Source of the DNA: Escherichia coli
Lineage (GTDB): Bacteria; Pseudomonadota; Gammaproteobacteria; Enterobacterales; Enterobacteriaceae
Assembly (NCBI GenBank): GCA_026712295.1
Contig: GCA_026712295.1_4694.1
DNA: 41,342 bases
Direction: 5' to 3' (one strand)
Shown here: in pieces, positions 2,073-32,105 of the stretch
Position numbering within the stretch: the first letter of the stretch is position 1
How the letters are laid out: each line of letters begins with the position of its first letter
Position numbers and translations under genes: made by a program
The notes under the pieces: model-generated
The model's database searches: none
What the model was told of the DNA's origin: nothing
The model's input: only the letters and a program-made list of their open reading frames with translations

Positions 2073-3332
2073 AGCGCACCACATGCTTCAGGGCGCAGAC
2101 CACCGTGACCCATAGCATACTTAGCGATAATCTGGTCTGCTTGGAAGTTAGCTCGACGAGCACGTTCCAGTGCCATATCTTTCAGCTTAACAGTACCAAC
2201 GGCAGAGCGGTGATTGAACAGACCGACAACGTTGTCCAGAGCAACACGGGTGTCACCAGAGGAAGTCTTAGGGAACGCATGTTTCTGACCAGTCGGATTT
2301 GCACCCTCTTCTGGACGGTCTTCGCCAGCACCACCAGCAGTCAGATGCGGAACCTCAATAACTTCGAAGCCCATAACGTTGCGGATAGAGCCAGTAGACG
2401 GGTCAATCAGAGCCTGATAGTTTGCAGCGTTAGGCATCAGAGCAGCCAGAATAGCAGAGTAGTTGTCTGGAGTGGTGTAGAACACACGGTCAGCAGACGG
2501 AACATAGTTGCCAGTCAGCTTGGCACGAGCCAGAGTTAACTGTGCGATAATAGCCTGACCCAGCTTAACTTGGTCTCCCCGAAGCTCAGACTGCTTGCCA
2601 ACTTCCAGTACATGAGCCTTACCGAGACCAGCGATGTTCTCGTTAGACGCAGACGGCAGGTTACACAGTTTAGCCATTTCAGCCAGAACCGCGCCATCAG
2701 CAGCCATCGCAAGAGATTCACCCAACTGTGCGGTATACTCGGAGCGCACGTCATAGTGGTTCATTGCGTCTTCGATGTCGTAAATCAGAACGTCAGCAGT
2801 CAGCAGACCATCAATGTTAATGGTACGCTCAGTGTGCTTCATGTCTTTACGTTTGTCATCGAGGTTCTCACCCGGTTGCAGGTAAGCAGCTTTGGTACGA
2901 CCCAGCACAGGGAACTGCGCGGACTTACCGGACTGGATAGAGCGAACAAGGTGTTTGTTCATAGTTACGGAGGTACGGGTAAATGCAGTCAGAACTTCAC
3001 CACCGAAGACCTTCAGGAACAGAGCCAGTTTATCACCAGCGCTCATACCTTTACCTTGGTCTTTAAGTGTGCTTCATGTCTTTACGTTTGTCATCGAGGT
3101 TCTCACCCGGTTGCAGGTAAGCAGCTTTGGTACGACCCAGCACAGGGAACTGCGCGGACTTACCGGACTGGATAGAGCGAACAAGGTGTTTGTTCATAGT
3201 TACGGAGGTACGGGTAAATGCAGTCAGAACTTCACCACCGAAGACCTTCAGGAACAGAGCCAGTTTATCACCAGCGCTCATACCTTTACCTTGGTCTTTA
3301 CCCATCTGTTGTCCACCATTCATGCTAGCCAT
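2054..3332 (-). CDS. 10A: Major capsid protein (gp10A), reading frame interrupted by a 235-bp tandem duplication (track ORFs 3063..3332 and 2054..3046)
   Basis: N-terminus MASMNGGQQMGKDQGKG (T7-tag-like) with RBS AGAAGGAGA; downstream ORF matches T7 gp10A throughout (GLLTADVLIYDIEDAMNHYDVRSEY, RANFQADQIIAKYAMGHGGLRPEA); removing one repeat copy restores a 347-aa frame. Confidence 0.9.
2831..3300. repeat. Perfect tandem duplication, 2 x 235 bp (2831..3065 and 3066..3300) inside gene 10
   Basis: Both copies read identically from agtgtgcttcatgtc to ccttggtcttta; unit length is not a multiple of 3. Confidence 0.95.
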
Positions 3333-3500
3333 GTTGAATCTCCTTCTGTTGATTTAAAGTTTAATGTGTGAGGTACTACTTGAAACGAGTTGGTTCTCAT
3401 TGTGTATCACTCAAAGGGAGCATTCCCACGACAAGCCCGGAAGCCAGATGTCACAGCAACTTAATGGTCTGTGTGACCTCCAATCGTGGGATTCCATCTC

Positions 3501-3523
3501 TCTCCCAATAGTGAGTCGTATTA
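3501..3523 (-). promoter_or_regulatory. T7-type late promoter (phi10-like)
   Basis: Minus strand TAATACGACTCACTATTGGGAGA, one mismatch to the T7 consensus TAATACGACTCACTATAGGGAGA. Confidence 0.85.
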
Positions 3524-3526
3524 ATT

Positions 3527-4438
3527 TTAGAAGTTACTGTACATCATCTTACGCTCAACTTCAGCACGGAACTTAGAGTCCGAACGGTAGCGAGGGTCAG
3601 ACATTGCAGCAATCATCTCAGCCTGTGACTCAAAGCCAGACTGTTTGGCTCGTACAGGTGCAGCAGGGACGGCACGTTTAGAGATACTACGGGCAGCAGG
3701 TTTACCGAAAGTCTTCGCACGGCTTGCACCAGCGAGATTAACGATAGCCTTAACTGTTGCGAGGTCACGATTCTCCAAGGCACTAATCAGAGACTCGGCA
3801 GCATCCGGGTTGGACACTTCGAGGTGATTGTAGATTGCTTGGAACTGTGCTTCACCGCCAGCGTACTCCATAACGGACTGAACATACTGTTCTACCAGTG
3901 CTTCCTGACCACGGATGTAGGAGTCAACGAAGGACTTAGAGTAGCCAGCCTTAGCCAGTTCTTCATAGGACTCTTCGGACAGACCATCTTCACCATATTC
4001 CTGTTGGATACGGACGATAGTTTCTTCGGACAGACCACGTTCAGCAGCCTGATTGACCATCTCTTCGAAGCCAGCTTCATGCTCTTCGAGTTGACTTGAG
4101 GCTTCATTCAGTTCGTCTGGAACGTCACCCACAGGTTCAAACTCTTCGGAACCTTCTTCGTTGCCTTCGGAGTAATCAATCTCGCCCTCTTCGGTCTCTT
4201 CAGGTTCACCATCAGTGGAGATACGAATCTCAGTACGATTCTCGTCTTCTTCACCAAACGGGTCTGGATTACCATAAGGGTCATCATTGCCAACTAACTC
4301 GATTGCGTCATCACCATCACGGGCAGCAACGTCGAGTTCAAGCATAGCCTGTTCGTGGTCAGTAGGAGTAGACCCACCTACAACCGCAGAGTTCACACCA
4401 AAAGATGCGTATACGTCAGCGTTAGATTCACCAGCCAT
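3527..4438 (-). CDS. 9: Capsid assembly (scaffolding) protein gp9, 303 aa
   Basis: Highly acidic protein between portal and capsid genes, AAGGAG RBS, length and position as T7 gp9. Confidence 0.85.
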   Translation of the reverse strand: MAGESNADVYASFGVNSAVVGGSTPTDHEQAMLELDVAARDGDDAIELVGNDDPYGNPDPFGEEDENRTEIRISTDGEPEETEEGEIDYSEGNEEGSEEFEPVGDVPDELNEASSQLEEHEAGFEEMVNQAAERGLSEETIVRIQQEYGEDGLSEESYEELAKAGYSKSFVDSYIRGQEALVEQYVQSVMEYAGGEAQFQAIYNHLEVSNPDAAESLISALENRDLATVKAIVNLAGASRAKTFGKPAARSISKRAVPAAPVRAKQSGFESQAEMIAAMSDPRYRSDSKFRAEVERKMMYSNF

Positions 4439-4494
4439 AATTGTTATCTCCTTTAGATTTCATAAAGTTGAACTCAAAGGGAGGACGTATTGTC

Positions 4495-4517
4495 TCTCCC
4501 ATTAGTGAGTCGTATTA
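4495..4517 (-). promoter_or_regulatory. T7-type promoter (phi9-like)
   Basis: Minus strand TAATACGACTCACTAATGGGAGA. Confidence 0.8.
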
Positions 4518-6122
4518 ATTTGGAACCATTCCAGCCTGTTCAGCAGCCGCTTGCATGTTCTCAGGGCTTGCAGTGGCAAGTGCACCAGCACCAGCACCAG
4601 CAGACGCAGCAGCGTTCTCCATAGCCGTACCCTGTGCAGCCTCAGCCATCTCCTGTTGTTTCTCTTCAGGTGTCTTAAGGATACCGGAAGTGTCGATGCC
4701 GATAGCGTTCGCAATGCGCAACTTAATGGTCGCAATGTTGATGTCCGGGTCATTCTGCATAGGAGCAAGAGCAGACCAAGCAGCAATACAACGTTCCAGC
4801 TTATCGAGGTCTTGACCACGACCCAGTGCTTCCATCCCGGTACTGATAGTAGGCTCAACGGCCTCTTTCGGTAGCTCAGGAATCTGATTGGTCGCTTGAA
4901 GTTGCTTCAGCAGGACACGAACCATTGGCAACTGAAGTTCCTGTGAGAGAATCGAATAGACACCACCAAGGGTATCTTCGAGTTCAGATGCAACATATCG
5001 AATCTCTTCGGCAGTCACACGCTCACCAGTGCGTTGCACAGCGGAGTTCAACATAAAGGCATAGGACAGTCGGCCCTCAATCTGTTCACTCACAGCTTTC
5101 GCTACAGAGAAGTCTGCGGCCTTTTCAAGCTGAAGGAACGAGATGTCTTCTGGACGACCAGACACGAAGTCACCAGTCTGTGCTTTGGTCAAACGACGAA
5201 CCTGTGTGATACCAGCCGGGTTAACCAAGCCAATAACTTTAGCACTAATCATTGACATCTTAACGATAGCTTCTTGGAGGTTCTCAAGGGACCGTAAGTC
5301 ACCTAAGTATTCCTCACAGTAAGAACGACCATATGATTCTCCATCAATGCGTACCATGCGAACCGGGATATAAGGACAAGCGTCCACCGGATAAGAAGCA
5401 TCTGTACCATCGACTTCAACACCATCAATCTCTTCGTACTTGAGGTACTCACCAGATTCTTCGGCAAGATAAATGTGAGTGTACACATCAATCATTTCGT
5501 CGCCTTTATGTTCCTGACCGGAGTCCATAGAGTTTCGAACGTCTTCTGGAAGTGCTGCATAGGCAGTCTTATCTAAGGTTACAATCTGTAGCACCGTGCC
5601 GAATGCGTCTCGTTGGACAACATAAGAAGACAGGCGGTATAGCTTCATGGGATTGTAAGTACCTTCAGGTTCAGGAATGTAGAGCAGAGCGTTACCTGCA
5701 ACGACCAACTGCTTGAGGGTCTCAAAGAGTGTCACACGGTACGAGTTGGACTCGATGTAGTTCATCAAGATTCGCTCGACCATTGAGAGACCTTCTTCGA
5801 CCTTCGCTAGTTCGGCTGGCTGTGCAACCAATTGTTTCGCTTCGAACTCAGAGATGGTCAGCTTCATCCACGTCTGCATAGGGAACAGAGCGAGCATGAG
5901 CTTAGAGGCCAAGTTGTTCAAGCCACGAGCGCCAACTGCTTGCCACGGAGTGGTGTAGTCAGTAGAGGCGTTGTCGGAGTCTTTAGGGAACAACGAAGGG
6001 ATGGTGTACTTCGCACAGTTTTCCGCACGGGTCTCATAGGAGTTCCGGTCGTTCTTCAATGCGTCATACACCGCCTTGGCACCATTCTCAGCGAAGCCTT
6101 CACGTTTCTGTGAGCTTGCCAT
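4515..6122 (-). CDS. 8: Head-to-tail connector / portal protein gp8, 535 aa
   Basis: Long identical blocks with T7 gp8 (YTIPSLFPKDSDNASTDY, GESYGRSYCEEYLGDLRSLENLQEAIVKMSMIS). Confidence 0.92.
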   Translation of the reverse strand: MASSQKREGFAENGAKAVYDALKNDRNSYETRAENCAKYTIPSLFPKDSDNASTDYTTPWQAVGARGLNNLASKLMLALFPMQTWMKLTISEFEAKQLVAQPAELAKVEEGLSMVERILMNYIESNSYRVTLFETLKQLVVAGNALLYIPEPEGTYNPMKLYRLSSYVVQRDAFGTVLQIVTLDKTAYAALPEDVRNSMDSGQEHKGDEMIDVYTHIYLAEESGEYLKYEEIDGVEVDGTDASYPVDACPYIPVRMVRIDGESYGRSYCEEYLGDLRSLENLQEAIVKMSMISAKVIGLVNPAGITQVRRLTKAQTGDFVSGRPEDISFLQLEKAADFSVAKAVSEQIEGRLSYAFMLNSAVQRTGERVTAEEIRYVASELEDTLGGVYSILSQELQLPMVRVLLKQLQATNQIPELPKEAVEPTISTGMEALGRGQDLDKLERCIAAWSALAPMQNDPDINIATIKLRIANAIGIDTSGILKTPEEKQQEMAEAAQGTAMENAAASAGAGAGALATASPENMQAAAEQAGMVPN

Positions 6123-6136
6123 TTAGCGCCTCCTTG

Positions 6137-6505
6137 TTAGATATTAAGACCACCGCCAGAACTACGAGCGACACTCAGTGATTTCTTACCGCCAGCACGG
6201 GCTTTCTTCTTACCGGATTCAGTCTGTGCATCATCATCGGAGTCTACATCGTCTTTACTCGGTGGCTCGATAATTTGTGCAGCAGGAGGTGCAGCTTGAA
6301 CGGCAGCAGCGGGTGTCTCAACCACCTGTACATCAGGCTTACCACCACCAGCAAGTGCACCAGCAACGCCACCAACGACCTTACCAGCTTCCTTCCCGAC
6401 CTTCTCGACTGCCTTACCAGTTTCCTTGACTACCTTCTCGATAGGCTTGGTTACTTTCTTGATAGCCTTCTTAACTGATTTGCGAATCTTTTTACCCCAA
6501 CCCAT
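6137..6505 (-). CDS. 7.3: Lysine-rich virion/tail protein gp7.3-like, 122 aa
   Basis: C-terminus ESGKKKARAGGKKSLSVARSSGGGLNI as in T7 gp7.3; AGGAGG RBS. Confidence 0.7.
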   Translation of the reverse strand: MGWGKKIRKSVKKAIKKVTKPIEKVVKETGKAVEKVGKEAGKVVGGVAGALAGGGKPDVQVVETPAAAVQAAPPAAQIIEPPSKDDVDSDDDAQTESGKKKARAGGKKSLSVARSSGGGLNI

Positions 6506-6519
6506 GATAGACCTCCTAT

Positions 6520-6795
6520 TTATTTCTTCTTAAAGATACTGGTACGGATACCAGATTTAGACTTCTTCTTGGCAGCATCGGAGTCTGCCTTCTTGGACTT
6601 CTCAACGGAGTCATCCAGTTTCACCTTCAGGGACTTCTTGCCACCCGTTGGCACCTCAGAAGAGGTTCCGCTATCATTGTCCTCTTCGCCACCAAAGAGA
6701 ATACCTTTCGGTTCCTCAGTCAGTGGAGCAGGGTCGATAGCTCGGATGGATTCAGTCTTTACTTTAGGTGTCTTAATCTTTGGTGAAAAGCACAT
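6520..6795 (-). CDS. Small virion protein, gp6.7-like, 91 aa
   Basis: N-terminus MCFSPKIKTPK resembles a T7 small virion protein; GGAGG RBS; exact T7 gene number (6.7 or 7) uncertain. Confidence 0.6.
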   Translation of the reverse strand: MCFSPKIKTPKVKTESIRAIDPAPLTEEPKGILFGGEEDNDSGTSSEVPTGGKKSLKVKLDDSVEKSKKADSDAAKKKSKSGIRTSIFKKK

Positions 6796-6810
6796 AAGAC
6801 CTCCATACGA

Positions 6811-7056
6811 TTAGGACTCAGCCTGTTCCTTACGGATTGCCTCCATGTCGTCCAGAGTTTGAGACGCATAGTTGAGACCCGCGAGGAACCCAGCGATGTA
6901 GCTTTCAGACCATCCAGCCTGTTTTAATCGGTTGATTAGTCCTGACTGAATAGCATATCCAGCATTGTACTGAACCTGTAGGTACTCCATAACACTCCGA
7001 GGAACATTAGGAATATCTTGTGGGTTCTCCATATACTTCTTGATAGGGGTTAACAT
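6811..7056 (-). CDS. gp6.5-like protein, 81 aa
   Basis: Track ORF 6811..7137 trimmed to ATG at 7054-7056 (MLTPIKK...) with AAGGAG RBS, just downstream of the phi6.5-like promoter. Confidence 0.55.
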   Translation of the reverse strand: MLTPIKKYMENPQDIPNVPRSVMEYLQVQYNAGYAIQSGLINRLKQAGWSESYIAGFLAGLNYASQTLDDMEAIRKEQAES

Positions 7057-7107
7057 AATTAATGTTCTCCTTAAAGTTAAACTTAAAGTAGGTATCATAT
7101 AGGCACC

Positions 7108-7130
7108 CCTCTCAATAGTGAGTCGTATTG
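7108..7130 (-). promoter_or_regulatory. T7-type promoter (phi6.5-like)
   Basis: Minus strand CAATACGACTCACTATTGAGAGG. Confidence 0.75.
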
Positions 7131-7158
7131 ATTTCACTATCGAGAAGAATGCCTAGAG

Positions 7159-7245
7159 TTACACACTCTTAGCTATAAATGCAGCCCACACCATAGAGAA
7201 GGCTACGATTGCGAACACTACGAACGCAACTGTTCCGGCGACCAT
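7159..7245 (-). CDS. Small hydrophobic protein (gp6.3-like), 28 aa
   Basis: AAGGAG RBS then ATG; MVAGTVAFVVFAIVAFSMVWAAFIAKSV; overlaps the 3' end of gene 6 by 28 nt; below the ORF-track length cutoff. Confidence 0.45.
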   Translation of the reverse strand: MVAGTVAFVVFAIVAFSMVWAAFIAKSV

Positions 7246-8132
7246 AGGTAAATCTCCTTGTCGATAAAGTTGTACTCTTCGAAACGCAGGATGCGAGCCA
7301 TCTGGCCTTGCTTAATGATTTCCTCTTCGGTCATCCCAGCTTTTGCACCAAGTGTCACAATAGCTTCCCATAGGGTTCGCTCACCCATGTCAACCTTTTT
7401 CCATTCGAGAACTGTCTGTCCCTTACGAGCACCAGACTTGAAAGTTTTCTCAACCTGTTCAAAGGCATACGGGTTCTCCAGCCACTCAGCGGTAGTCTCT
7501 CCCCAGCCCGGAATGCCACCATAGCCATCTGTCAAGTCACCTTTGATGGTCTGATAGATGTGCCAGTAGTCGGCAGTCGTCTGGTCTTGAGTCAAGATGT
7601 TACCAGTGGTACACCACAAGAAGTCACAATCAGGGATGGTCTTAAAGTCCTTATCACAGGAGACCAGTACAGCCTTCTTGAAACCAAAGTGTTTAGCACC
7701 AGACCCAATGATTCCCATTACGTCATCACCCTCTAAGCGAGGCTCAAGGATAGACGTCCAGTCCTCAAAGGCTTGAACACGCTCGACGAACGCACGGTAG
7801 CCTACAGGCTTACGGGATGCCTTACGGTTCTCCTTATAGGTTGGGTCCACCAGTTCCTTGCGCCAGTTCACAGCGTCAGTGAAGGCCAGTACGATAGGTG
7901 CATCACGCCAAGCCTTCTTACGGCTCGCATAGGACTTGATAGAGTCAACCAGAATGTTCCACGCTTTCCCGTGGTCACACTCTAAGGTCCAGCAATCATC
8001 GCCCCAATCGGTCTCGACTTCACTTGCTGCCATCGCTTGGAATACCAACCAGTCACCATCCATTACGAGAACACCCTTATCTGATTTCCCTTGGCGTAAC
8101 TCATAGAACTCCTTCAGAGTTAATGCGCTCAT
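7218..8132 (-). CDS. 6: 5'-3' exonuclease gp6, 304 aa
   Basis: Matches T7 gp6 (LVMDGDWLVFQAM, SCDKDFKTIPDCDFLWCTTGNILTQ, KAGMTEEEIIKQGQMARILRF); GGAGG RBS. Confidence 0.92.
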   Translation of the reverse strand: MSALTLKEFYELRQGKSDKGVLVMDGDWLVFQAMAASEVETDWGDDCWTLECDHGKAWNILVDSIKSYASRKKAWRDAPIVLAFTDAVNWRKELVDPTYKENRKASRKPVGYRAFVERVQAFEDWTSILEPRLEGDDVMGIIGSGAKHFGFKKAVLVSCDKDFKTIPDCDFLWCTTGNILTQDQTTADYWHIYQTIKGDLTDGYGGIPGWGETTAEWLENPYAFEQVEKTFKSGARKGQTVLEWKKVDMGERTLWEAIVTLGAKAGMTEEEIIKQGQMARILRFEEYNFIDKEIYLWSPEQLRS

Positions 8133-8311
8133 AGGTCATCCTCCGTAAAGAGTTCAGCTACAGCATCATCGTAGCCACACCAATTGTCTACACCGTGGGC
8201 CTCAAGAGCATTCAGCTTCGCTAGGCGACCCTCAAGGAACTCAATATATGCGTTAACATCATTCCATGCTTCACGAGGCATCGTTACAGTGTCGCTTTTA
8301 GATATACTCAT
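8129..8311 (-). CDS. 5.9: gp5.9-like protein (T7 gp5.9 is a RecBCD inhibitor), 60 aa
   Basis: Track ORF trimmed to ATG at 8311 with GGGAGG RBS; ATGA overlaps with 5.7 stop and gene 6 start; position and size as T7 5.9. Confidence 0.6.
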   Translation of the reverse strand: MSISKSDTVTMPREAWNDVNAYIEFLEGRLAKLNALEAHGVDNWCGYDDAVAELFTEDDL

Positions 8312-8517
8312 ACGCAACCTCCCATCTTCTTCAGGAATCGGACACCAGCGCCTGTTACTTCCCAAGCGCCAGCATTACGCCCATCGACTGATAGGCAAGA
8401 GATATGGCCACGACTCGCAGCCTCAGCCACCAGTGACGCATTGTTGCGCACATAGTTCGACTGAAAGGTCTTAGGGCAGCTTTTGATAGCCGCCAGTACA
8501 CGTAGATAATCACCCAT
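8308..8517 (-). CDS. 5.7: gp5.7 protein, 69 aa
   Basis: Near-identical to T7 gp5.7 (IKSCPKTFQSNYVRNNASLVAEAA, RGHISCL, FLKKMGGCV). Confidence 0.85.
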   Translation of the reverse strand: MGDYLRVLAAIKSCPKTFQSNYVRNNASLVAEAASRGHISCLSVDGRNAGAWEVTGAGVRFLKKMGGCV

Positions 8518-8810
8518 TACTTCACCTCACGGATAGTTGCAGGTGCAAACTTAATGCCCTCACCGTGGTGCTCAATGCCCATCTCACGGATTTCATTACG
8601 AATGCCCTGCTTAACAGCAAAGGCAACAACACCATCGGCACCATAAGTCAGAGCCTGAACGAGCAACTCTTTGTCCTGTGCGCTAACTTCCTCACCATCA
8701 CGAACGCTACGAGCCAAATCCAAGATGCGTTCCTGAATCATAACTTCGGTCTCAGAGTCAACCTTAACGGTCATTTCGAATGATACTTTAAAACGTTTAG
8801 TAATAGCCAT
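8517..8810 (-). CDS. 5.5: gp5.5 protein (T7 gp5.5 binds host H-NS), 97 aa
   Basis: Track ORF trimmed to ATG at 8810 (MAITKRFKVSF) with AGGAGA RBS; C-terminal IREVK as in T7 gp5.5. Confidence 0.7.
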   Translation of the reverse strand: MAITKRFKVSFEMTVKVDSETEVMIQERILDLARSVRDGEEVSAQDKELLVQALTYGADGVVAFAVKQGIRNEIREMGIEHHGEGIKFAPATIREVK

Positions 8811-8827
8811 GATATGTTTCTCCTGTA

Positions 8828-10942
8828 TTAGTGACAATCTTTCCAGTTTGCGCCAGTCTTACCTTCGGTATCTAACTGACATCTAAAGTTAAAGTGGTCT
8901 CCCACATTACGCATTGCTTGCTGTGCCAACTCGACAATCTTATCGGCAATCTCTTGAGTACGGGCAGCTACCTGAATCTCATCGTGGACCCAAGCCATGT
9001 ACGCAAAGTCACCATCCCAGCCATGCTTAAGGCCAGCTTCCAGTAACAGACGTTCAGTCTCAACAATCCACAGTTTACAAATAAGAGCACCAGCGGACTG
9101 CAACAAGGTGTTCAACGCAGCATGAGGACTACGGACGTGGACTTTACGACCATCCAAGCCACGAACCCAACGGCGCTTCCAAGTTACTTTCTGTTCACCG
9201 CCAACCCACTTGGAGTCCTTGACGAGTGTCCCTGTGATTGCTTCACGTAACGCAGCGATAGCAGGAGTTTGGTCAAGGAAGTTCTTGATGAGTCGCTTAC
9301 CATCTTCGGCAGTACCACCAACAATCTGTCCAATCTTCGCAGCACCAGCACCATAGAGGAACCCATAGATAAACGTCTTAGCGTTGTCACGAGTTGGTAG
9401 ACCCGCAGCCAATTGGTTCTTCGTATGGATGTCACCAGTGAGGATAGTCTCAACGTACTCACCCTCATCATAACGATACATGAAGTGACCTAAGCAACGT
9501 AGCTCAAGGCCGGACGCATCCACACCCACTTGAATCCAAGGGTCTGGCTTACCGTCTTTCAGGTTATGCTCGGCACCGAAAGCAGCACGGCAAGGTTCAC
9601 CATATGCAGCACGGATTGAAGGCACCTGTGCCACGTTAGGGAAGCTATGGGTTGCACGTCCAGTTACCGCACCGTTAGGGTTAACGCTTCCGTGAATACG
9701 ACCATCTTCTCCAATCATTCGGAGCCAGCCGTTATCACCTTCAGCAACCTGACCGATACGCTTCTGAATCATAAGGTATTCTTTAATCAACTCAATGCAA
9801 CGCTGTGCATCCGGGTCGTCTACCTTAACGTGCTCTAAGACCTCATCATCTACCTTTGGTGCACCACTTGGGGTGAACTCAACGGGAACCCAACCAGCCT
9901 TGGTAAGCACACGGGTGATGTGTTCACGACTTGCAGGGTTAAATACAACGTGCTCTACAGGAGTATACGGAGCGCCCTCTACATAATCACGAGTGTCCAG
10001 TTCACAAGGTTCCAGACCTTCACGTTGCTTCTTGTTCTTCGGCTTCTTAAAGATGCCACCCTGTTTCGGATACTTCACACGAGGATACTTGGTGAGCGGC
10101 TTTCCGGTACGAGGATGCCTGAATGCTTCAGTACCGCCCTTAGCGGAGTACCATGAGCCAAACGTATTGGTTAACTCTACGAGTAGCTCACCACGTCTAC
10201 CAGCGAGTTCTGCGTACAGGTTCTCAAGAGACTTAATGTCAATCGGGAAACCATTACGTTCCATCTTAGCTAACAACCATGCAGCATCATGTTCCAGTTT
10301 GACAGCCTCAATGCTACCATTCCAGAAACGGTCTGCTTCTGTGCTTCCAGCGGGTGTCTCGTTAGGGAAATAGAAAGTGTTACTACACAGTTTCTCAAAG
10401 AGTGCCTTGGTGACTACAACGTCTTGAACGTTATATTCCATCATGTCTTCATTGAAGAACAGCCACTCCATCCCATCAACGTATTCTTCACCAGACTCTT
10501 CCAGTGACTTCTTAAAGTCGTCCTTGTACTCACCCTTCATTTCACCCAAGCGGTAGCCCCATGCTTCCAGAGCGTGAGACCCAAAGCGTTGTCCCGGTAG
10601 CTTGCCAGCACGGAGCAGACCAGCATCGGTGTCTTTGATGTTAGAGTAAATCAGTCGGGACATCACTAAGGTGTCCAAGACGTTCTCTTTCGGGAACTTA
10701 ACGTCACGATTAAGAATCAGCTTTGCCAGCTTCTCGATAACCGGAACGTCATACTTATGCCCGTTGTGAAACACAATGAGACCACCGCGAGCAACCTCAG
10801 CTTCGAGTGCATCAATGTATGCCCCAAAGTCATCAGGCCGATAACGGATGTACTGGTCGGTTGTGTAGTCGTAAGTCACCGCACAGTGAAATTGACTAAC
10901 GTTGTGCAGCAACCCGTTTGTTTCGATGTCGGATAGTAACAT
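8828..10942 (-). CDS. 5: DNA polymerase gp5, 704 aa
   Basis: Same length as T7 gp5; N-terminal 3'-5' exonuclease motif (MLLSDIETNGL), family A polymerase motifs; AAGGAG RBS. Confidence 0.95.
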   Translation of the reverse strand: MLLSDIETNGLLHNVSQFHCAVTYDYTTDQYIRYRPDDFGAYIDALEAEVARGGLIVFHNGHKYDVPVIEKLAKLILNRDVKFPKENVLDTLVMSRLIYSNIKDTDAGLLRAGKLPGQRFGSHALEAWGYRLGEMKGEYKDDFKKSLEESGEEYVDGMEWLFFNEDMMEYNVQDVVVTKALFEKLCSNTFYFPNETPAGSTEADRFWNGSIEAVKLEHDAAWLLAKMERNGFPIDIKSLENLYAELAGRRGELLVELTNTFGSWYSAKGGTEAFRHPRTGKPLTKYPRVKYPKQGGIFKKPKNKKQREGLEPCELDTRDYVEGAPYTPVEHVVFNPASREHITRVLTKAGWVPVEFTPSGAPKVDDEVLEHVKVDDPDAQRCIELIKEYLMIQKRIGQVAEGDNGWLRMIGEDGRIHGSVNPNGAVTGRATHSFPNVAQVPSIRAAYGEPCRAAFGAEHNLKDGKPDPWIQVGVDASGLELRCLGHFMYRYDEGEYVETILTGDIHTKNQLAAGLPTRDNAKTFIYGFLYGAGAAKIGQIVGGTAEDGKRLIKNFLDQTPAIAALREAITGTLVKDSKWVGGEQKVTWKRRWVRGLDGRKVHVRSPHAALNTLLQSAGALICKLWIVETERLLLEAGLKHGWDGDFAYMAWVHDEIQVAARTQEIADKIVELAQQAMRNVGDHFNFRCQLDTEGKTGANWKDCH

Positions 10943-11449: not shown

Positions 11450-11450
11450 C

Positions 11451-23569: not shown

Positions 23570-23614
23570 TGGTTAGACTAAAAGGCTATTGTCCAGTGCG
23601 TGCAAATCGCGCCA

Positions 23615-23815: not shown

Positions 23816-23840
23816 GGTGTTAGTCCTATTGCATGTTAAA

Positions 23841-23888: not shown

Positions 23889-24347
23889 TTACTGTACTTG
23901 CCAGCGGCGACCGAACTCATCAATAGTGAAGCAGCCTTTCAGTGCCTCGGTGCGTGGGACTTCTTGGAAGCTACCATGTAGACGTTCAGCTTTGTACCCG
24001 TCGATGCCTTTAGCGTACACTAAGCCAGCCGTGTGAGTCTGTGATTTATAGACCAGCACGCAATCTTGTTCCCACTCATTACATGCCAGACGTGCGACAT
24101 TGAGAACCTGTGCCTTGTCTTTACAACGTACACGGATTGTTTTCTCTTCAGTTGGTGCACTTGAGATGGCTTCGCGGTAACAGCCAGTTAAATCGGTAGA
24201 CTCAACGCTACCATAAAGACCCGGTGCGTTGCGCAGGTTGTTAACCATGTGGCGGTGGCGACTCATGTTGACCTCATCGTCGAGGTTAGAACGGAATGCG
24301 CTTACCAGTACATAGAAAACATTAGCTTGCTCTTTAGTGTGAATCAT
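23889..24347 (-). CDS. 0.3: S-adenosyl-L-methionine hydrolase (T3-type gene 0.3 anti-restriction protein), 152 aa
   Basis: Track ORF trimmed to ATG at 24347 with GAGG RBS; near-identical to T3 SAMase (ANVFYVLVSAFRSNL, RHRHMV, APGLYGSVESTDLTGCYREAISSAPTEEKT, CFTIDEFGRRWQVQ). Confidence 0.9.
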   Translation of the reverse strand: MIHTKEQANVFYVLVSAFRSNLDDEVNMSRHRHMVNNLRNAPGLYGSVESTDLTGCYREAISSAPTEEKTIRVRCKDKAQVLNVARLACNEWEQDCVLVYKSQTHTAGLVYAKGIDGYKAERLHGSFQEVPRTEALKGCFTIDEFGRRWQVQ

Positions 24348-24361
24348 GATGATTGCCTCGA

Positions 24362-24407
24362 TGTTGGTTACAGTGATTATCATAAAGGCTTCTCTTTCGA
24401 GTCACCT
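24362..24407 (-). promoter_or_regulatory. RNase III-type processing hairpin (R0.3-like)
   Basis: TGATTATCATAAAGGCTTCTCTTTCGAGTCACCTTGAGTTAATCGC directly upstream of gene 0.3. Confidence 0.5.
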
Positions 24408-24535
24408 TGAGTTAATCGCTAGTGCCGCCATCTCAAGAGTGCTATTGTCACCAAATTGTTAAAGAGCTTTAAGTGCAGGTTTGTTAGCACCGAGTCCCTT
24501 TCAGTGTAGGACTTCACAAGAACGTTATGTCGTAC

Positions 24536-24565
24536 ATCTTACATCTTGTTGTTGCTACTTGTCAA
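24536..24565 (-). promoter_or_regulatory. Host sigma70 early promoter (A3-like)
   Basis: Minus strand TTGACA - 18 nt - TAAGAT; homologous in sequence and order to T7 A3. Confidence 0.7.
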
Positions 24566-24631
24566 CTACTTTTGTTTCTCACCGTGACACCTCATGTTGT
24601 TTCAGAGGGCGACCAGTTGTTGACGACTGCT

Positions 24632-24660
24632 ATACTACGTTATTGCTTTCGTTGAGTCAA
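24632..24660 (-). promoter_or_regulatory. Host sigma70 early promoter (A2-like)
   Basis: Minus strand TTGACT - 17 nt - TAGTAT. Confidence 0.7.
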
Positions 24661-24766
24661 CCACTTTCGTGTGTCTGGTTGATGACTACTTGAGACATTC
24701 CCGCCTCACCAGATAACTCTAGGTCTTGTCTAGTGGTTGGTAGCGCTGTGTCTCTCAACGGTTGCT

Positions 24767-24795
24767 ATAGTCTCATAAGCTATTATCAATGTCAA
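24767..24795 (-). promoter_or_regulatory. Host sigma70 early promoter (A1-like)
   Basis: Minus strand TTGACA - 17 nt - GACTAT followed by AGCAACCGTTGAGAGACACAGCG, homologous to the T7 A1 region. Confidence 0.65.
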
Positions 24796-24896
24796 CCCTC
24801 AATCTTAAAGAATCTCAAAGTCTCTCTTTAAGTGGTCTTATAGTCTCTTATAGTCTCTTATAGTGGACATAAAGAGAGGATGACCAGTATTAGCTA

Positions 24897-24919
24897 TTCC
24901 TCAATAGTGAGTCGCATTA
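24897..24919 (-). promoter_or_regulatory. T7-type promoter (phiOL-like, left-end replication promoter)
   Basis: Minus strand TAATGCGACTCACTATTGAGGAA, upstream of the sigma70 promoters as phiOL is in T7. Confidence 0.65.
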
Positions 24920-25117
24920 AAGGCTATTGACTATCAGCCACCTTTAAGGCACTATAGGCACTCAGTCGATTCTACTTGTCCCTCTCATCACTCAGGGACT
25001 GCTAAACAGAGTGAGATAGTGATTTCCCTTTGTGACGAAGCCTATTGGTCACTGATAAACATAAGGCACTGACTGAAGGTTAACATAAGGATAGGCAGCC
25101 ATAAGGATAGACATAAG

Positions 25118-25547
25118 GAGGTGACATAAGGTGATAACTCTAGGGTCACTTACAGATAGGGACACAGAGAGGACTACATATAGTGGTCATAAGGTATCAC
25201 TAAGCACCATATCTAGTGGTTACACCTAGAGTTAACCCAATGTCTCACAAAAGGATTGACTTCAGGTAAACCATGAGTTACCATAGAGGAAGGCTCTTTG
25301 GGTGGACTGAAGGAGGCCATAGGGGGGGGGGAGAGGTGACATAAGGTGATAACTCTAGGGTCACTTACAGATAGGGACACAGAGAGGACTACATATAGTG
25401 GTCATAAGGTATCACTAAGCACCATATCTAGTGGTTACACCTAGAGTTAACCCAATGTCTCACAAAAGGATTGACTTCAGGTAAACCATGAGTTACCATA
25501 GAGGAAGGCTCTTTGGGTGGACTGAAGGAGGCCATAGGGGGGGGACT
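25118..25547. repeat. Two adjacent copies of the direct terminal repeat (~214 bp each, 25118..25332 and 25333..25544); junction marks the linear genome ends
   Basis: Copies identical except terminal G-run (10 G vs 8 G); internal motif ACAGATAGGGACACAGAGAG is shared with the T7 terminal repeat; CATAAGG heptamers flank both sides. Confidence 0.8.
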
Positions 25548-25796
25548 CGGTGTTTATGAACTATGAGATACTCACTCAGATTTTTCTGTAGGATTCTTAA
25601 AGGGGTACATCAAGTCTCATAAGGTTAACCACAGAGGCTATATCATAAGGTGAGACTACGTGAGAGACCCTAAGAGACCCTGTAGACCATAGAGGGTACA
25701 TAAGGGTTACTCTTAGAGTTGACTTCTTACAGTGATTATAGGGAAGATGAATATCGACCATAATCACTAAGAGCGCACTAAGCGCCAATGAGTAGT

Positions 25797-25952
25797 CTAA
25801 GAAACACAAGTGAGTAGAGAACAAAGCAGAGTCTCCAGTTCACCGATGTGTTCAGCACTAGATGCGAGGCCAATGGAAGCAGCAAGTACAACGAGAAATT
25901 TGTAGGTCACTCGATGCGTTGCCAGTGTCTTGAGCACGGATAGTAAGCGCAT
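25797..25952 (-). CDS. 19.5: gp19.5-like small membrane protein, 51 aa
   Basis: AAGGAGG RBS then ATG; MRLLSVLKTLATHRVTYKFLVVLAASIGLAS... resembles T7 gp19.5 (HRVTYRFLVVL); not in ORF track. Confidence 0.65.
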   Translation of the reverse strand: MRLLSVLKTLATHRVTYKFLVVLAASIGLASSAEHIGELETLLCSLLTCVS

Positions 25953-26108
25953 AGAGCGTCCTCCTTGTTATACTTGATGGTTACACTGATAGTAGGGATG
26001 TAATTACTATTACCATCATCCCTCACTGTAAGGTCTCTAAGAGTTAGTCACTAAGTATGCACTTTGCATATGCAGTCTTTAAGTGTCTTTAAGTTGTCTT
26101 AGGGTGCC

Positions 26109-26131
26109 CTTCCCAATAGTGAGTCGTATTA
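26109..26131 (-). promoter_or_regulatory. T7-type promoter (phiOR-like), duplicated copy
   Basis: Minus strand TAATACGACTCACTATTGGGAAG. Confidence 0.7.
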
Positions 26132-26397
26132 ATTTCTTCATGTATATCAGTAAGTTACTTAACGGTAACGTAGCGGTACTAAGTGCTTACCTATGCACCT
26201 TTCCCGCATACTTATCTATTACCACTCAATGAAGCAGCTAGAGTCTCCATCATCCTCATAGTAGATGTCCACGCCACCAACATCGTAGCTATGGATAGCA
26301 TCACCACCAATGGTCTGTTTCTCCATGTGGTGTTCAAGGAACTCAAGGGTCATCTCTTCTTCAATCTTTAAGTGTCTTTAAGTTGTCTTAGGGTGCC

Positions 26398-26420
26398 CTT
26401 CCCAATAGTGAGTCGTATTA
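26398..26420 (-). promoter_or_regulatory. T7-type promoter (phiOR-like, right-end promoter downstream of gene 19)
   Basis: Minus strand TAATACGACTCACTATTGGGAAG. Confidence 0.75.
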
Positions 26421-26507
26421 ATTTCTTCATGTATATCAGTAAGTTACTTAACGGTAACGTAGCGGTACTAAGTGCTTACCTATGCACCTTTCCCGCATAC
26501 TTATCTA

Positions 26508-28265
26508 TTACCACTCAATGAAGCAGCTAGAGTCTCCATCATCCTCATAGTAGATGTCCACGCCACCAACATCGTAGCTATGGATAGCATCACCACCAAT
26601 GGTCTGTTTCTCCATGTGGTGTTCAAGGAACTCAAGGGTCATCTCTTCTTCACCTACACGGCTGTCCACAAGCATCCCTTCACGAAGGAACTCGATACCC
26701 AATGCGATAGCATCAATGCGGTCATCGTGTGCCACAGCGCCTCGCTCACGGGTCATACGGGTCATCTGATAGAACGCACTGTAGCGGACATCATGTTTCC
26801 CATCAAGGTCACGAGCAGTCTGGTAGTCCTCACGGATAACCTCATCACGAATGACCAGCTTGTGGGCACCCATCAACGGTTCGATAGTATCGCAGATTCG
26901 CATCTCCTTCATGCCCTTAGCACGGATTTCCTCTAAGGCACACTTATGGTGCTTCAGGAGAATCGGAGAGAAAATCTTACCGAACATACCGTCACCGAAG
27001 TTGGACTCGTGGACTACTGTCTGTACCTTCCACTGCTTGGCCTTCTTAGCGAGCTTCTCTAGGGTAGCATCATCGTAACCACCACGGAACCCACCGACTT
27101 CCATCAAGTAGATATAACCATTAAGTGAGTAGAGGACTGCGTACCCGGTCTCATCCTTACCACGACCACTTGGGTCAATGACCAGAATCTTAGACTGATA
27201 CTCAGCGGTACGAGAAGAGCACGTATGGAACGCATGGATGTCGTCACCCTTCAGACCAACGTTAGGGAGTTCCTCATTGCGGTTCTGACGGTTCGGCAAC
27301 CACTGGTAAGACAATGGGGCACGTTCAGGGTCCACAGCGCACACGATAGCATCACGGAGTCGTAGCGGGTACTTCTCGGCATCACTAAGGTTCGGGTTAA
27401 GCATGAACTGAAGTGTGTAGCCAGCTTTACCATATTCGAGTTCACGTTCACGGAGGTCATCCATATCGAATCGAACAGGGTCAGTAGGTTGACCGCGAAG
27501 TAACTCATAGCCTTCATCATACTCTTGCTTGAGCATAGGAGCCAGTCGGTCGCCATAATAGAGAGCCTCAGCGTCATTACGTGGATACTGTGCTGGCCAG
27601 ATTACTGTGCTGTACCCTTTGTTATCCTCAAGTTCCTTGTAGAGCGTCATCTCAGTTTGAGGTGTGCCAAGGTAGATAACACGAGAGGTAGGCAGCGGCT
27701 TAAGTAATGCAGCGAACTCAGTTACCAACGTCCAGAGCTTCTCACGAGCAGAACTCGTAGAGCTATTACCGGGAACCTCAACGTCATCTGCGATAATGAT
27801 GTCAGCACGGCTACCAGTTAACTGACCAGTGATACCTACAGACTTCACAGAGGGTGAGTGGTCGGGTTTAGCCAAGCCAACATCGAAGCTAATCACGGAG
27901 TCACGCTGTCCCGGTCGAGGTTTCAACTCAGAGAGGAACGGAAGGAGGTCGATGATGTTCTTGATGAAGATGGAGTTAGCATCAGCACGTTCCTTAGAGG
28001 CAGACACGATGAGAACCTTAAGTTGAGGGTCTCGCCATAAGACCCACACGACGAACGCACAGGTGATAAAGGACTTGCCGATACCACGGAACGCCTGAAG
28101 GATAAACTTCTTGTGGTCGCCGTTAGCGAGTGTACGTGCCATATCAATCTGACACTTGGTTGGTTTAGGTAAGTTCAGAGCCTTCCATAAGACGAACAGG
28201 AAGGCCACGAAGTCACCCTTAAGTTGCGCCACGATGAGCGCATTCTTGTTTGCTTGAGTAGACAT
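26508..28265 (-). CDS. 19: Terminase large subunit (DNA maturase B) gp19, 585 aa
   Basis: Walker A-like GIGKS, strong similarity to T7 gp19 (one residue shorter than T7); GGAGG RBS. Confidence 0.95.
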
Positions 28266-28280
28266 TGTGGCCTCCTATTG

Positions 28281-28838
28281 TTACTTGGCAGGTTTCTCTA
28301 AGGCAGCAATGTGCTTCTCTAGAGCCTTGATAGTGTCGGTCTTAGATACAGCCCCGTCGATGTTACTAGGTTGGAACATAACGGAAGCGCTCTTCCCTTC
28401 GCTGTCCACGAACTGTGTACCAAATTCACTATCAGACGCAGAAAGCGTTGCACCAACTAAGGAAGCCATACCACCTTCAGGTTCAGGGTCAGCACCAGTC
28501 CACTCTTTGTATACGTCGATTCGAACCATACCGAGTCGCTCAGCGCTTTGCTCATTCAGGAACACCGTCATGAACCCGCTACCCGGTTTAGACTCGACGG
28601 AGCCACCCCAAGTGGACATAAGGGTCTCGAACGTAGCATGTTGCTCAGTGGTGCCATCGCTAAGTTGAACAACGTATTCAACCTTAGAGTACCCCTCTAC
28701 CTTAACCATCTCCGAAGCTGGGATGTCGATACGCCCAACACGAATACCAATATTGTTGAGGTCATACACATCACGACTGTCTGGCGAGCGACCATTGATG
28801 GTCCATAGTGTGCGGGTTCTTGAGTTTGTAGTAGCCAT
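28281..28838 (-). CDS. Hypothetical protein, 185 aa, between Rz and the terminase large subunit (no T7 counterpart at this position)
   Basis: ATG at 28836-28838 with strong RBS AAGAAGGAGAAATAAT immediately after the Rz stop; no recognisable motifs. Confidence 0.7.
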   Translation of the reverse strand: MATTNSRTRTLWTINGRSPDSRDVYDLNNIGIRVGRIDIPASEMVKVEGYSKVEYVVQLSDGTTEQHATFETLMSTWGGSVESKPGSGFMTVFLNEQSAERLGMVRIDVYKEWTGADPEPEGGMASLVGATLSASDSEFGTQFVDSEGKSASVMFQPSNIDGAVSKTDTIKALEKHIAALEKPAK

Positions 28839-28839
28839 A

Positions 28840-29283
28840 TTATTTCTCCTTCTTAGATTGCATTTCAGTTATTGTATTTTGGAGCGCCTTAATCCACGCA
28901 TCCCCTCTTTGAGTTACTCCGATAAGACGCTTACTAAACTCTTCGTCAAGTTCGGCTCGACCATCAACGAGGCATCCACCGTTAGCTTGGAGTTCTCGTG
29001 AGGTGGCTGATAGTTTGACGCGCAAGCGCTTACCATCGTTACGCAAATCATTAATGACCCTATCAGTGCTGCCTTCCAGCGCCGCAAGGTCTTCTTGGTA
29101 TTGTCGTGAGACTTCATTGATAGCAATCTGTTTATCCTCAGTCGCCTTAACTTTCTTAACGTACTCATTGTGCACCTCCTGTTCCCATTTAGTGTTAGCT
29201 TTGTCATATCCGTGGTTATACGCAAGGGTAATACCCAAGGCAAACGCAGCGATTATGGCGTAGCTCTTTAAATTCTTGAGCAT
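28840..29283 (-). CDS. 18.5: Rz-like spanin (i-spanin) gp18.5, 147 aa
   Basis: N-terminal TM segment, KWEQEVHNEYVKKV and YQEDLAALEGSTDR blocks as in T7 gp18.5. Confidence 0.88.
   Translation of the reverse strand: MLKNLKSYAIIAAFALGITLAYNHGYDKANTKWEQEVHNEYVKKVKATEDKQIAINEVSRQYQEDLAALEGSTDRVINDLRNDGKRLRVKLSATSRELQANGGCLVDGRAELDEEFSKRLIGVTQRGDAWIKALQNTITEMQSKKEK
28914..29117 (-). CDS. 18.7: Rz1-like outer-membrane lipoprotein (o-spanin) embedded in Rz in a different frame
   Basis: Embedded ORF with signal-like segment and lipobox-like VSAC followed by a Pro-containing tail (ASNYQPP); start codon choice uncertain. Confidence 0.45.
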   Translation of the reverse strand: MKSHDNTKKTLRRWKAALIGSLMICVTMVSACASNYQPPHENSKLTVDASLMVEPNLTKSLVSVLSE

Positions 29284-29336
29284 AACTACCCTCCCGTATT
29301 TTCAGATTTCACGTAGCGTCACCGTGAGTTGTGTTG

Positions 29337-29380
29337 AAATATCATAAAGACCACTAGATGTAGTGGCCTTGAGTTATTCC
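29337..29380 (-). promoter_or_regulatory. RNase III-type processing hairpin (R18.5-like)
   Basis: GAAATATCATAAAGACCACTAGATGTAGTGGCCTTGAGTTATTCC with a perfect CCACTAGATGTAGTGG stem. Confidence 0.55.
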
Positions 29381-29381
29381 A

Positions 29382-29651
29382 TCAGTTCAGCGTGTACTTC
29401 TCATCTTCAGTGAGACCATCGGCACCTACCATGTTCTGGTACTCTTCGAGTCCATCTGCCAGTCCACCAAGGATGTTACGGTCTGGCTGTAACTTGGAGA
29501 CTTGGAACTTGTGGCGCTCTAACAGTTTCCCGATTGCGTTGTACAGTTGAGGTGTGCGCTTATCGTCATCCTGAAGGTCTTTCAGCATACGTTGAGCCAT
29601 CTCAGTATCCAGCATCTCAAGGAATTGGATTAATGATTTATCGTTAGACAT
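29382..29651 (-). CDS. 18: Terminase small subunit (DNA maturase A) gp18, 89 aa
   Basis: Same length as T7 gp18; SLIQFLEMLDT, PQLYNAIGKLLERHKFQ blocks. Confidence 0.9.
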   Translation of the reverse strand: MSNDKSLIQFLEMLDTEMAQRMLKDLQDDDKRTPQLYNAIGKLLERHKFQVSKLQPDRNILGGLADGLEEYQNMVGADGLTEDEKYTLN

Positions 29652-29850
29652 CTTTGCCCTCCTTCTTCCATTTGATAATCACATCGACTACCTTGGCACC
29701 AATTTGAGCCACTGTGTAGGCAATTGCGGCTACATAGAACCACTCGTTGAGTGACAGGCCGAAGAACAGACGGGCAGCACCATCGGCTACGCCTGTCCCT
29801 ACAATCGGTGCAGCCTTCACTACCTCGTTGTTAAAATCTAAAGACAACAT
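29644..29850 (-). CDS. 17.5: Holin gp17.5, 68 aa
   Basis: MLSLDFNNE...AAPIVGTGVAD...RLFFGLSLNEWFYVAAIAYTV nearly identical to T7 holin. Confidence 0.92.
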   Translation of the reverse strand: MLSLDFNNEVVKAAPIVGTGVADGAARLFFGLSLNEWFYVAAIAYTVAQIGAKVVDVIIKWKKEGKDV

Positions 29851-29896
29851 TGTGTCCTCCTTATTGTTGAGACCATCCGTGGTCTATATGTTGTCC

Positions 29897-32105
29897 TTAT
29901 TGGTTTTGAACTAAGATTCGCGTAGGGACTGAACGGGCGTCTTTGTCGTTACGGAAAGTTCTGCCGTTGTTGGAGATTGTGAACTTCAACCAACCACCAT
30001 CAGACGCGATGAAGTAAGCCGCATTGTCACCAATAGGAACGGCGTTCCAGCGACCATTGGTCTGAATCCAGATGGTTCTCCAACGAACATCCTGTGAGAG
30101 ACCTACCGAGACACCACCACCAGCATAGCCTTTCCAGACCTCAGCCCACCCAGCATTCTTATTGACGTATCGACCATCAGCTTGCGCTTGAGTTAACCGT
30201 CCATTGACTAGGTTGTTTACTTCGCTTTTATTGTAGGCATGTTCTCCAAGGCGTTTGTTGACCCAACCGTCGATGTAAGAATCATACTTCGTGATGTATA
30301 AGTTACCATCTGGTGGAATGTACCAGCCTGAGTTGGATGTTAATGTACCATTTGAATCAAACGTATACTCCCTGTTAGCTGCCTGACCAAAGTTAAGCCT
30401 CCACGCCCCAGCGCCGGGGTCTTTGTAAAGATAACCATCGGTGTAGTTATCGCTGGTTTTCATTTGAATATGTCGACGAGCAGAGTTAATCATCAGCAGG
30501 TTCTGTGAGCGAGTCTGTAAGATTCCAGTGAAGTCACCTGATTGTCCAACCGTAAGCCCACCAGCAGCCTCCATATGTCCATTCACTCGCATCTGGCAAA
30601 ATGTGTCGTTAAGGTTAGCCTTCTGGATATACATATAGTACCCATTACCGCTACCACCTAACTCAAATACGTTTGCACGTCCTTGGTCATTCCCCCATAC
30701 GAAGAACCTCATATTTCTATCAGCGAAGTTCTGGTTCACAAGCTGCAACGAGTTCCTTGTTAACACGCTAAACGATTGACCTGCGCCAGCCCTTACTTCC
30801 TTTTCACCAGTAATCTGTCCGGGTGCTACAACATCATTCTTAAAAACAACGTTCTCACCATTAACCGCTTTAATGGTTCCCGCTAAGTTATTCATATTCC
30901 CTAACTTGTCAGCCTCGGTCTTTGCACGGTCAGCTTCACTCTTGGAGCGGTTTGCCTCAGTGTTGGCTCTGTCAGCATGTCCATCAGCGGTAGCAACGTG
31001 TGCAGCGGCTTTGGCAACCTCAGCAGCAGCCTTAGTCACTTCTCCGGCAGCACGATTGGCCTCATCACGGGCACGATTGGCCTCAGAGTTAGAACGGTCA
31101 GCTTGCTTCTTGGCCTCAATTCTTAAAAACAACGTTCTCACCATTAACCGCTTTAATGGTTCCCGCTAAGTTATTCATATTCCCTAACTTGTCAGCCTCG
31201 GTCTTTGCACGGTCAGCTTCACTCTTGGAGCGGTTTGCCTCAGTGTTGGCTCTGTCAGCATGTCCATCAGCGGTAGCAACGTGTGCAGCGGCTTTGGCAA
31301 CCTCAGCAGCAGCCTTAGTCACTTCTCCGGCAGCACGATTGGCCTCATCACGGGCACGATTGGCCTCAGAGTTAGAACGGTCAGCTTGCTTCTTGGCCTC
31401 AGCTACACTTGCGGTCATACTATCAGCATAACCTTTAGCTCGGTTAGCCTCAGAGTTGGAACGGTCAGCTTGCTTCTTGGACTCAACCGCCTGTGCCGTA
31501 GAGACACCTGCCTGTTGGGTTGAGCGGTCAGCTTCACGTTTTGCACGGTCAGCTTCATCTCGCGATCGGTTAGCCTCAGTGTTAGAGCGGTTAGCGTGTT
31601 CATTGGCCTTGTTAACAGCGTTCCAAGCAGACGACTCGCGCTCTTTTACTTGCTTCAGAGGGACAGCATCGTAGTCACTGGTAGCGAACGCTAGGTTCAC
31701 AATCTTACGACCACGGGCATCCAAGTGACCATCATTGTTGACACCAATGGTATCCGCAGTTAGGTCTCGTGCCTCTTCAGCTACGTGCAGCGTCTGAATC
31801 TGTGAGATGTTAAGGTCATACGCACGAAGGATTGAGCCATCAGCAAAGTCAACCAGACGGTCGGTTGCAGAAGTGAATCGACGAATCTCAATCATCTGAT
31901 AACCATCGGCAGCAGTCCACGCACGGGAGGTTGTGATTTGGGTCTTAGTGGTAAAGCGATAGTCCTGATTGAGAACCAACTCTTTACGGTCTTTCCCGAT
32001 GAGTGTCACTTGGACGAACTTACGTGCTAAATACTCAAAGGTAATCGTGAAGTTCACGGCACCGTTCAGCGGGTAAGTACGTACAGTGGAAATTTTGTTA
32101 GCCAT
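29897..32105 (-). CDS. 17: Tail fibre protein gp17, reading frame interrupted by a 283-bp tandem duplication (track ORFs 31116..32105 and 29897..31144)
   Basis: N-terminus MANKISTVRTYPLNGAVNFTITFEYLARKFV and DRLVDFADGSILRAYDLNISQIQTLHVAEEARDLTADTIGVNNDGHLDARGRKIVNL match T7 gp17; C-terminus YFIASDGGWL; removing one repeat copy gives a 641-aa frame. Confidence 0.88.
30836..31401. repeat. Perfect tandem duplication, 2 x 283 bp (30836..31118 and 31119..31401) inside gene 17
   Basis: Both copies identical from attcttaaaaacaacg to gcttgcttcttggcctca; unit length not a multiple of 3. Confidence 0.95.

Follow-up and report, generated by a model that had tools for sequence, protein, structure and literature searches.

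INTRODUCTION

T7-like phages of the genus Berlinvirus (Autographiviridae, Studiervirinae), such as PZJ0206, 285P, BA14, and Yersinia phage Berlin, share a gene order, a single-subunit RNA polymerase, and T7-like promoters, and they bear terminal repeats (194 nucleotides, nt, in BA14 and 226 nt in Berlin). The same gene order, polymerase type, and promoters are found in the 41,342-nt contig GCA_026712295.1_4694.1 of the Escherichia coli assembly GCA_026712295.1, the whole of which is referred to here as the window. The window is a complete Berlinvirus genome, reverse-complemented and circularly permuted, and it contains several tandem duplications of a few hundred nt, which are the subject of this report. 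The same phage is present in other draft assemblies, which we call siblings.

Duplications of this kind can be set beside two described systems. In classical T7 genetics, tandem duplications and deletions form between short direct repeats; like the arrays in the window, the classical duplications are head to tail, span a few hundred base pairs, and occur in a T7-type genome. The second system is technical. In the scaffolding programs SSPACE and ABySS, contigs that should overlap but have not been merged are separated by a single n. Overlapping contigs with negative gap sizes, together with errors enriched at contig ends, have been described in short-read scaffolds (PMC5368935), and bases are lost when negative gaps are patched (PMC8110574). 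False duplications are a recognized class of assembly error and have been reviewed (PMC9516828). False duplications from negative gaps in draft assemblies are, as in the window, exact copies that are absent from other assemblies of the same genome and whose collapse restores genes; the copies flank a placeholder, which in the window is a presumed one.

Taken together, our results indicate, with a probability of about 90%, that the tandem duplications in the window are a scaffolding artifact, in which overlapping contig ends were joined end to end without being merged, and not a feature of phage biology.

RESULTS AND DISCUSSION

Tandem duplications and end overlap in the window

Repeats were located by a repeat search of the window and by Tandem Repeats Finder, and both methods reported the same arrays. 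Head-to-tail, two-copy arrays lie at 2831-3300 (period 235), 26073/26076-26650/26652 (period 289), and 30836-31401 (period 283), where an earlier note on this DNA had placed them. Exact repeats of 235 to 289 nt are too long for a chance origin to be possible. The three duplications counted in that note are real, but there are five such features in all, as it had missed a further tandem duplication of period 215 at 25118-25547 (212 nt exact, with its junction in a poly-G run) and an overlap between the two ends of the window, in which 159 nt (1-159 versus 41184-41342) are repeated with one mismatch. The copies, none of which is assigned a strand, are listed here in the order of the sites, with the end overlap last.

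2831..3065, no strand: first copy of the 235-period unit, inside gp10A; the probable end of one contig
3066..3300, no strand: second copy of the 235-period unit; junction TTTA/AGTG; the probable start of the next contig, with one A as the presumed gap filler
25118..25332, no strand: first copy of the 215-period unit; ends in G10 and then an A that is not templated by the right-hand piece
25333..25547, no strand: second copy of the 215-period unit; overlaps the putative genuine terminal-repeat region
26076..26363, no strand: first copy of the 289-period unit; 288-nt exact overlap holding the 3' end of gene 19 and a phiOR-like promoter
26364, no strand: untemplated A between the 288-nt copies, at the place where sibling scaffolds carry N; the sibling bases flanking the unit are G (before) and C (after)
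26365..26652, no strand: second copy of the 289-period unit
30836..31118, no strand: first copy of the 283-period unit, inside gp17
31119..31401, no strand: second copy of the 283-period unit; junction CTCA/ATTC
1..159, no strand: start overlap, inside gp12; carries G at position 142, where 41325 and the sibling have T
41184..41342, no strand: end overlap; apparently a fifth unmerged overlap, from a circular or concatemeric read layout

Adjacent copies are identical except at their extreme ends, where the extra A stands at 26364 and a run of G10 faces one of G8 at 25322-25331. The description of all copies as perfect is correct for the 235 and 283 pairs and has to be amended for the 289 pair, in which the exact run is 288 nt (26076-26363 = 26365-26652), plus the extra A; read as a period-289 unit, the pair differs at base 3 (26075 G versus 26364 A). 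None of the periods 235, 283, and 289 is a multiple of 3, as had been pointed out, and all three are of the form 3n + 1. At the boundaries of the 235 and 283 units there is no microhomology and there are no short direct repeats, and the runs of offset matches stop exactly at the unit ends. Leaving aside the junction bases and position 142, the single-nucleotide polymorphisms that distinguish the window from the siblings were not clearly clustered around the junctions.

Affected genes and the effect of collapse

The genes at the 235, 283, and 289 sites are given below.

2054..3332, minus strand: gp10A, the major capsid protein gene; broken by a +235 frameshift into an 89-amino-acid (aa) open reading frame (ORF; 3063-3332) and a 330-aa ORF (2054-3046)
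29897..32105, minus strand: gp17, the tail fiber gene; broken by a +283 frameshift into a 329-aa ORF (31116-32105) and a 415-aa ORF (29897-31144)
26508..28265, minus strand: gene 19, terminase large subunit; intact, 585 aa, with an identical protein in five sibling assemblies

The 289 unit takes in ~145 nt at the 3' end of gene 19, together with the phiOR-like promoter that lies downstream, and the full 585-aa gp19 ORF is kept. The earlier statement that two of the three duplications are lethal as written is in agreement with this, as gp10A and gp17 are the frameshifted genes. Because these two duplications destroy essential structural genes, the sequence as written is not that of a viable clonal phage.

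When one copy was removed at each of the four internal sites, together with the 159-nt end overlap, the resulting sequence was 40,161 nt long and encoded a gp10A of 347 aa and a gp17 of 641 aa, the same lengths as gp10A in sibling locus L011 and gp17 in sibling locus L006, respectively. The collapsed sequence aligned to L006 as a single 18,929-nt block at 99.93% identity, and its alignment to L011 contained no duplications.

As a separate observation, the shaft region of gp17 (window 30909-31609) contains 21-nt (7-aa) periodic repeats of 60 to 77% identity, which lie partly within the 283-nt unit and presumably represent natural coiled-coil heptad periodicity.

The same phage in sibling assemblies

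Siblings were found by exact-protein look-ups with the RNA polymerase, terminase, portal protein, and gp15 of the window. They are the NCBI drafts GCA_026712305, -325, -335, -415, and -435 (whole-genome shotgun, WGS, prefixes JAJCTQ, P, S, U, and T, respectively; loci L005-L012), in which the phage occupies contigs or scaffolds between 4.2 and 42 kb in length. They are 99.8 to 100% identical to the window across long alignment blocks and jointly span the whole genome. Each of the four internal duplication sites is single copy in every sibling that covers it (L011 at the 235 site; L006 and L010 at the 283 site), and L011 runs through gene 12 without a break at the point of the 159-nt overlap. 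The relatives PZJ0206 and 285P are also single copy at the duplication sites. Independent reproduction of the duplications was what the earlier note had named as the observation that would speak against misassembly; the independent assemblies covering each site do not show a duplication there.

The sibling scaffolds have duplications of their own at other positions. Seven adjacent tandem pairs of 205 to 373 nt, with exactly one N between the copies, were found in L007 (at 340, 1243, 5105, 6041, and 9774) and L009 (at 480 and 885), and in these pairs the period is 1 nt longer than the overlap. At position 600 of L012, an eighth single N is followed by a 181-nt copy of sequence from further upstream. 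The N at 5105 of L007 lies in the same poly-C/G run as the 215 junction of the window, and this shared homopolymer indicates a recurrent contig end. Some sibling copies differ slightly from each other (98.9 to 99.5% identity); those sit in the polymorphic tip of the tail fiber, which suggests that population variants broke the contigs at this position.

Exact searches for the junction patterns of the window gave no match in viral, genome, or metagenome contig collections, and exact-protein look-ups of the broken gp17 fragment, of gp16, and of a window-specific 185-aa protein returned no record. A 40-mer from outside the junctions was likewise found in none of the genome contigs, and among the viral contigs it matched only FE44 and Yep-phi. 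A literature search for the JAJCT* assemblies or their assembly method found none.

These comparisons bear directly on whether the duplications could be genuine and very recent, either carried by defective genomes that are complemented at high multiplicity or produced by template switching in T7-type replication. The exactness of the copies is what recent events would give, the polymorphism of the tail fiber tip among siblings is real, so the populations are not clonal, and about 1 kb of extra DNA would probably still fit a T7-type capsid. However, the capsid and tail fiber genes are frameshifted, the duplications occur in no sibling covering the site and in no relative, the 235 and 283 boundaries have no microhomology, and the 289 junction holds an untemplated base. 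The sibling junctions are N, suggesting that the assembler had no read-supported sequence across them, and it is implausible that five events of similar size arose independently in a single consensus genome. The window thus shows neither the microhomology of slippage or illegitimate recombination nor the short direct repeats that flank classical T7 duplications, and, unlike these, its arrays disrupt essential genes, are not viable as written, and are not reproduced in siblings. We consider genuine duplication very unlikely, and the suggestion of recent real duplications in a laboratory population, one of those made in the earlier note, is left unsupported by the broken essential genes and the absence of the duplications from siblings.

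Several other features of the siblings should be mentioned in their own right. This strictly lytic-type T7-like phage occurs in at least five separate drafts of one run of WGS prefixes (L005-L012 and L015; JAJCTP, Q, S, T, and U), which suggests that the cultures were infected with phage, that a phage-challenge experiment was run, or that samples were cross-contaminated. A neighboring prefix, JAJCTX, belongs to the Klebsiella pneumoniae isolate Ecl_5.VN (South Africa, 2021). Although samples of this phage are otherwise 99.9% identical, the C-terminal tip of gp17 is hypervariable across them at window 29936-29944 (codons 627 to 629) and also at 30007 and 30126, as seen in siblings L006-L010. 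In the loop RND-KDA-RSV, the central residues are KDA, QAY, KDD, QDV, QDN, QAN, or KDV depending on the assembly, two haplotypes are present within single assemblies, and other nonsynonymous changes include Y566S and A606S. This variation in the receptor-binding tip looks like the result of strong host-range selection. Finally, gene 7.3 (window 6303-6469) has ~62 to 66 nt extra relative to L011, and gp7.3 has 122 aa here against 100 aa in that sibling. Imperfect tandem repeats of 33 and 21 nt occur in this region, and the L012 sequence is scrambled around an N at the same place; either a virion adsorption protein truly varies in length or this is another assembly problem.

Junction bases

An A is present at all four internal junctions of the window, and the window contains no N. 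At the 215 junction, the terminal A is not matched by the base just before the right-hand unit, and the run that is G10 in the left piece is G9 in the siblings. The geometry of the 289 junction, a 288-nt exact overlap plus one untemplated base, is the same as the sibling pattern. If the copies simply abutted, an A would stand on both sides of two junctions with a probability of about (1/16)^2, and a further error would be required for the stray A; with a constant filler A, a single chance match suffices at each AA junction. By our own calculation, which uses an assumed contig-end error rate, the likelihood ratio for a filler A over plain abutment is estimated to be of the order of 1000.

The junctions also allow two further explanations to be weighed. 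Manual manipulation, whether by hand concatenation of contigs or amplicons without trimming of overlaps or by the artificial insertion of duplicates, would agree with copies that abut directly with no N, and with overlap lengths that vary from 159 to 289 nt and so do not represent a fixed de Bruijn k. The public sibling scaffolds, however, show the same phenomenon with a software-style single-N join, and copy-and-paste insertion would not be expected to leave an unpaired A at 26364, a run of G10 ahead of the 215 junction, or an A at each of the junctions. Hand concatenation of overlapping contigs, for its part, is a variant of the unmerged-overlap explanation and not different biology. We regard manipulation as improbable. 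Artificially inserted copies would leave the stray A, the G10 run, and the pattern in the siblings unaccounted for, and the construct manipulation considered in the earlier note finds no support.

The other explanation is that chimeras formed during library preparation, by PCR template switching or fragment ligation, produced short loops in the assembly graph at very high coverage, each of which was traversed once. The duplicated units are of read or insert length, and phage DNA in a lysed culture would probably have been sequenced very deeply, both of which favor such a process. A read-supported loop gives a junction without N, though, and the siblings have N while the window has what looks like a constant filler base; we find this explanation scarcely credible. 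To the same slight degree one might suppose that the duplications of 160 to 370 nt in the window and the siblings are all real, being recurrent template-switching products of replicating T7-like populations, frequent enough in deeply sequenced lysates to enter the consensus, with the N or A as a side effect of the assembler.

Probable joining of contigs without merging of their overlaps

The sequence of events that best fits these data is that overlapping contigs were placed end to end. The assembler would have given about five contigs whose ends overlapped by roughly 160 to 290 nt, and a scaffolder or a person would then have ordered neighboring contigs correctly while leaving the overlaps unmerged, with a one-base gap placeholder between them. 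An exact tandem duplication would result from each unmerged overlap, and the 159-nt terminal repeat from that of the last contig with the first. The placeholder, an N in the siblings, probably became an A at some stage after the original scaffold was made and before the present copy was written, and we infer that the window passed through the same kind of pipeline as the siblings. The phage itself would have one copy at each site and intact capsid and tail fiber genes.

The one-N pairs of the siblings, in which the period exceeds the overlap by 1, fit contigs that were ordered and left unmerged with a one-base gap. As with false duplications at scaffold joins, the copies in the window abut, are absent from independent assemblies, and upon collapse restore both the genes and colinearity with other genomes. 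The window differs from the negative-gap duplications of other drafts in that its presumed placeholder is A and not N, so that the artifact is disguised as a seamless duplication. Read-length-scale misassembly, the explanation ranked first in the earlier note, is thus borne out by siblings that are single copy at these sites and have one-N duplications of their own, and by a collapse that restores essential genes.

Some points weigh against this explanation. The contig boundaries are deduced from the sequence. The step from N to A is likewise deduced from four junctions, two of which also fit plain abutment, in a window that has no N, and the link between the window and the pipeline of the siblings is circumstantial. 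In addition, the end overlap (159) and all but one of the internal overlaps (234, 282, and 288) have lengths divisible by 3. We have treated this as a coincidence because the sibling overlaps have no such pattern.

An overlap of fixed k, as a de Bruijn graph would give, was also considered and rejected, as the lengths vary (159, ~214, 234, 282, and 288 nt; 205 to 373 nt in siblings) and the end overlap contains a mismatch.

The probable terminal repeat of the phage

Two of the repeats in the window could be mistaken for the terminal repeat of a T7-like phage. By eye, we aligned the window to the annotated 194-nt terminal repeat of BA14, which places the corresponding element as follows.

25373..25568, minus strand: probable true direct terminal repeat or concatemer junction, 196 nt, TCTCATAG...GTGTCCCT in the canonical orientation, by alignment to BA14

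The 215-period duplication overlaps the region homologous to this annotated repeat of BA14. We considered whether it might consist of the left and right terminal repeats abutted to each other, and this was rejected, since the boundaries of the unit are not those of the repeat as judged by the annotated ends of BA14. The unit starts at a poly-C run inside the repeat, without its first ~24 nt (TCTCATAG...), and extends 40 nt past the end of the repeat. The 159-nt end overlap is superficially like a T7-like terminal repeat, but its position, within gene 12, is remote from the true ends of the genome. A direct terminal repeat of the T7 type would run from TCTCATAG to GTGTCCCT and stand at the physical ends, and neither the 215-nt nor the 159-nt repeat does so. 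Judging from these boundaries, the 215-nt unit appears to be another arbitrary duplication, which overlaps the terminal repeat by chance.

A perfect tandem repeat of 10 nt in 2.9 copies (TCTTATAGTC) is present at window 24836-24864, in noncoding sequence of the left end that lies a few hundred nt inward from the terminal repeat.

Identity and layout of the phage genome

By megablast against GenBank phages, the Enterobacter phage PZJ0206 is 96% identical to the window over 92 to 99% of the query, and the Escherichia phages 285P and BA14 are 93 to 95% identical; all of these matches extend over more than 90% of the length. Nucleotide identity, synteny, the T7-type RNA polymerase, and its cognate promoters all place the window in Berlinvirus. 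All long ORFs of the window are on the minus strand, and the reverse complement of TAATACGACTCACTAATGGGAGA marks nine promoter-like sites, compared with 0 expected by chance. The canonical genome ends of 285P and BA14 correspond to window ~25,370-25,570, whereas the ends of the window itself are inside the tail gene 12 (gp12).

The window is unlike some of its Berlinvirus relatives in the tip of the tail fiber and in an insert in gp16. The gp16 gene (window 32178-36623, minus strand) has a product of 1,481 aa, the same as in PZJ0206, compared with 1,315 aa in 285P and BA14. At window ~33939-34505, this gene has ~500 nt extra in place of ~70 nt of 285P. Pfam matches only the N-terminal SLT transglycosylase domain of gp16 and none in the insert. 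PZJ0206 (L001, MT625440), the closest GenBank record, was likewise deposited as the reverse complement. Its ends repeat each other over ~277 nt (116-393 and 40250-40526), which is longer than the ~196-nt terminal repeat proposed here for the phage of the window, and the deposited ends of PZJ0206 may be an effect of assembly rather than mapped termini.

Implications

As written, the sequence gives false, frameshifted capsid and tail fiber genes, a false genome length (41,342 nt, against a unit length of ~40,161 nt), and a false 159-nt terminal repeat. The presumed placeholder A, in the place of an N, removes the usual warning of a scaffold join, so that the artifact is recognizable only by comparison with other assemblies, and annotations or evolutionary conclusions based on the duplications would be mistaken. 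Their practical value is as a warning. They have no biological importance, because the phage, once the artifact is removed, is an ordinary and biologically unremarkable Berlinvirus.

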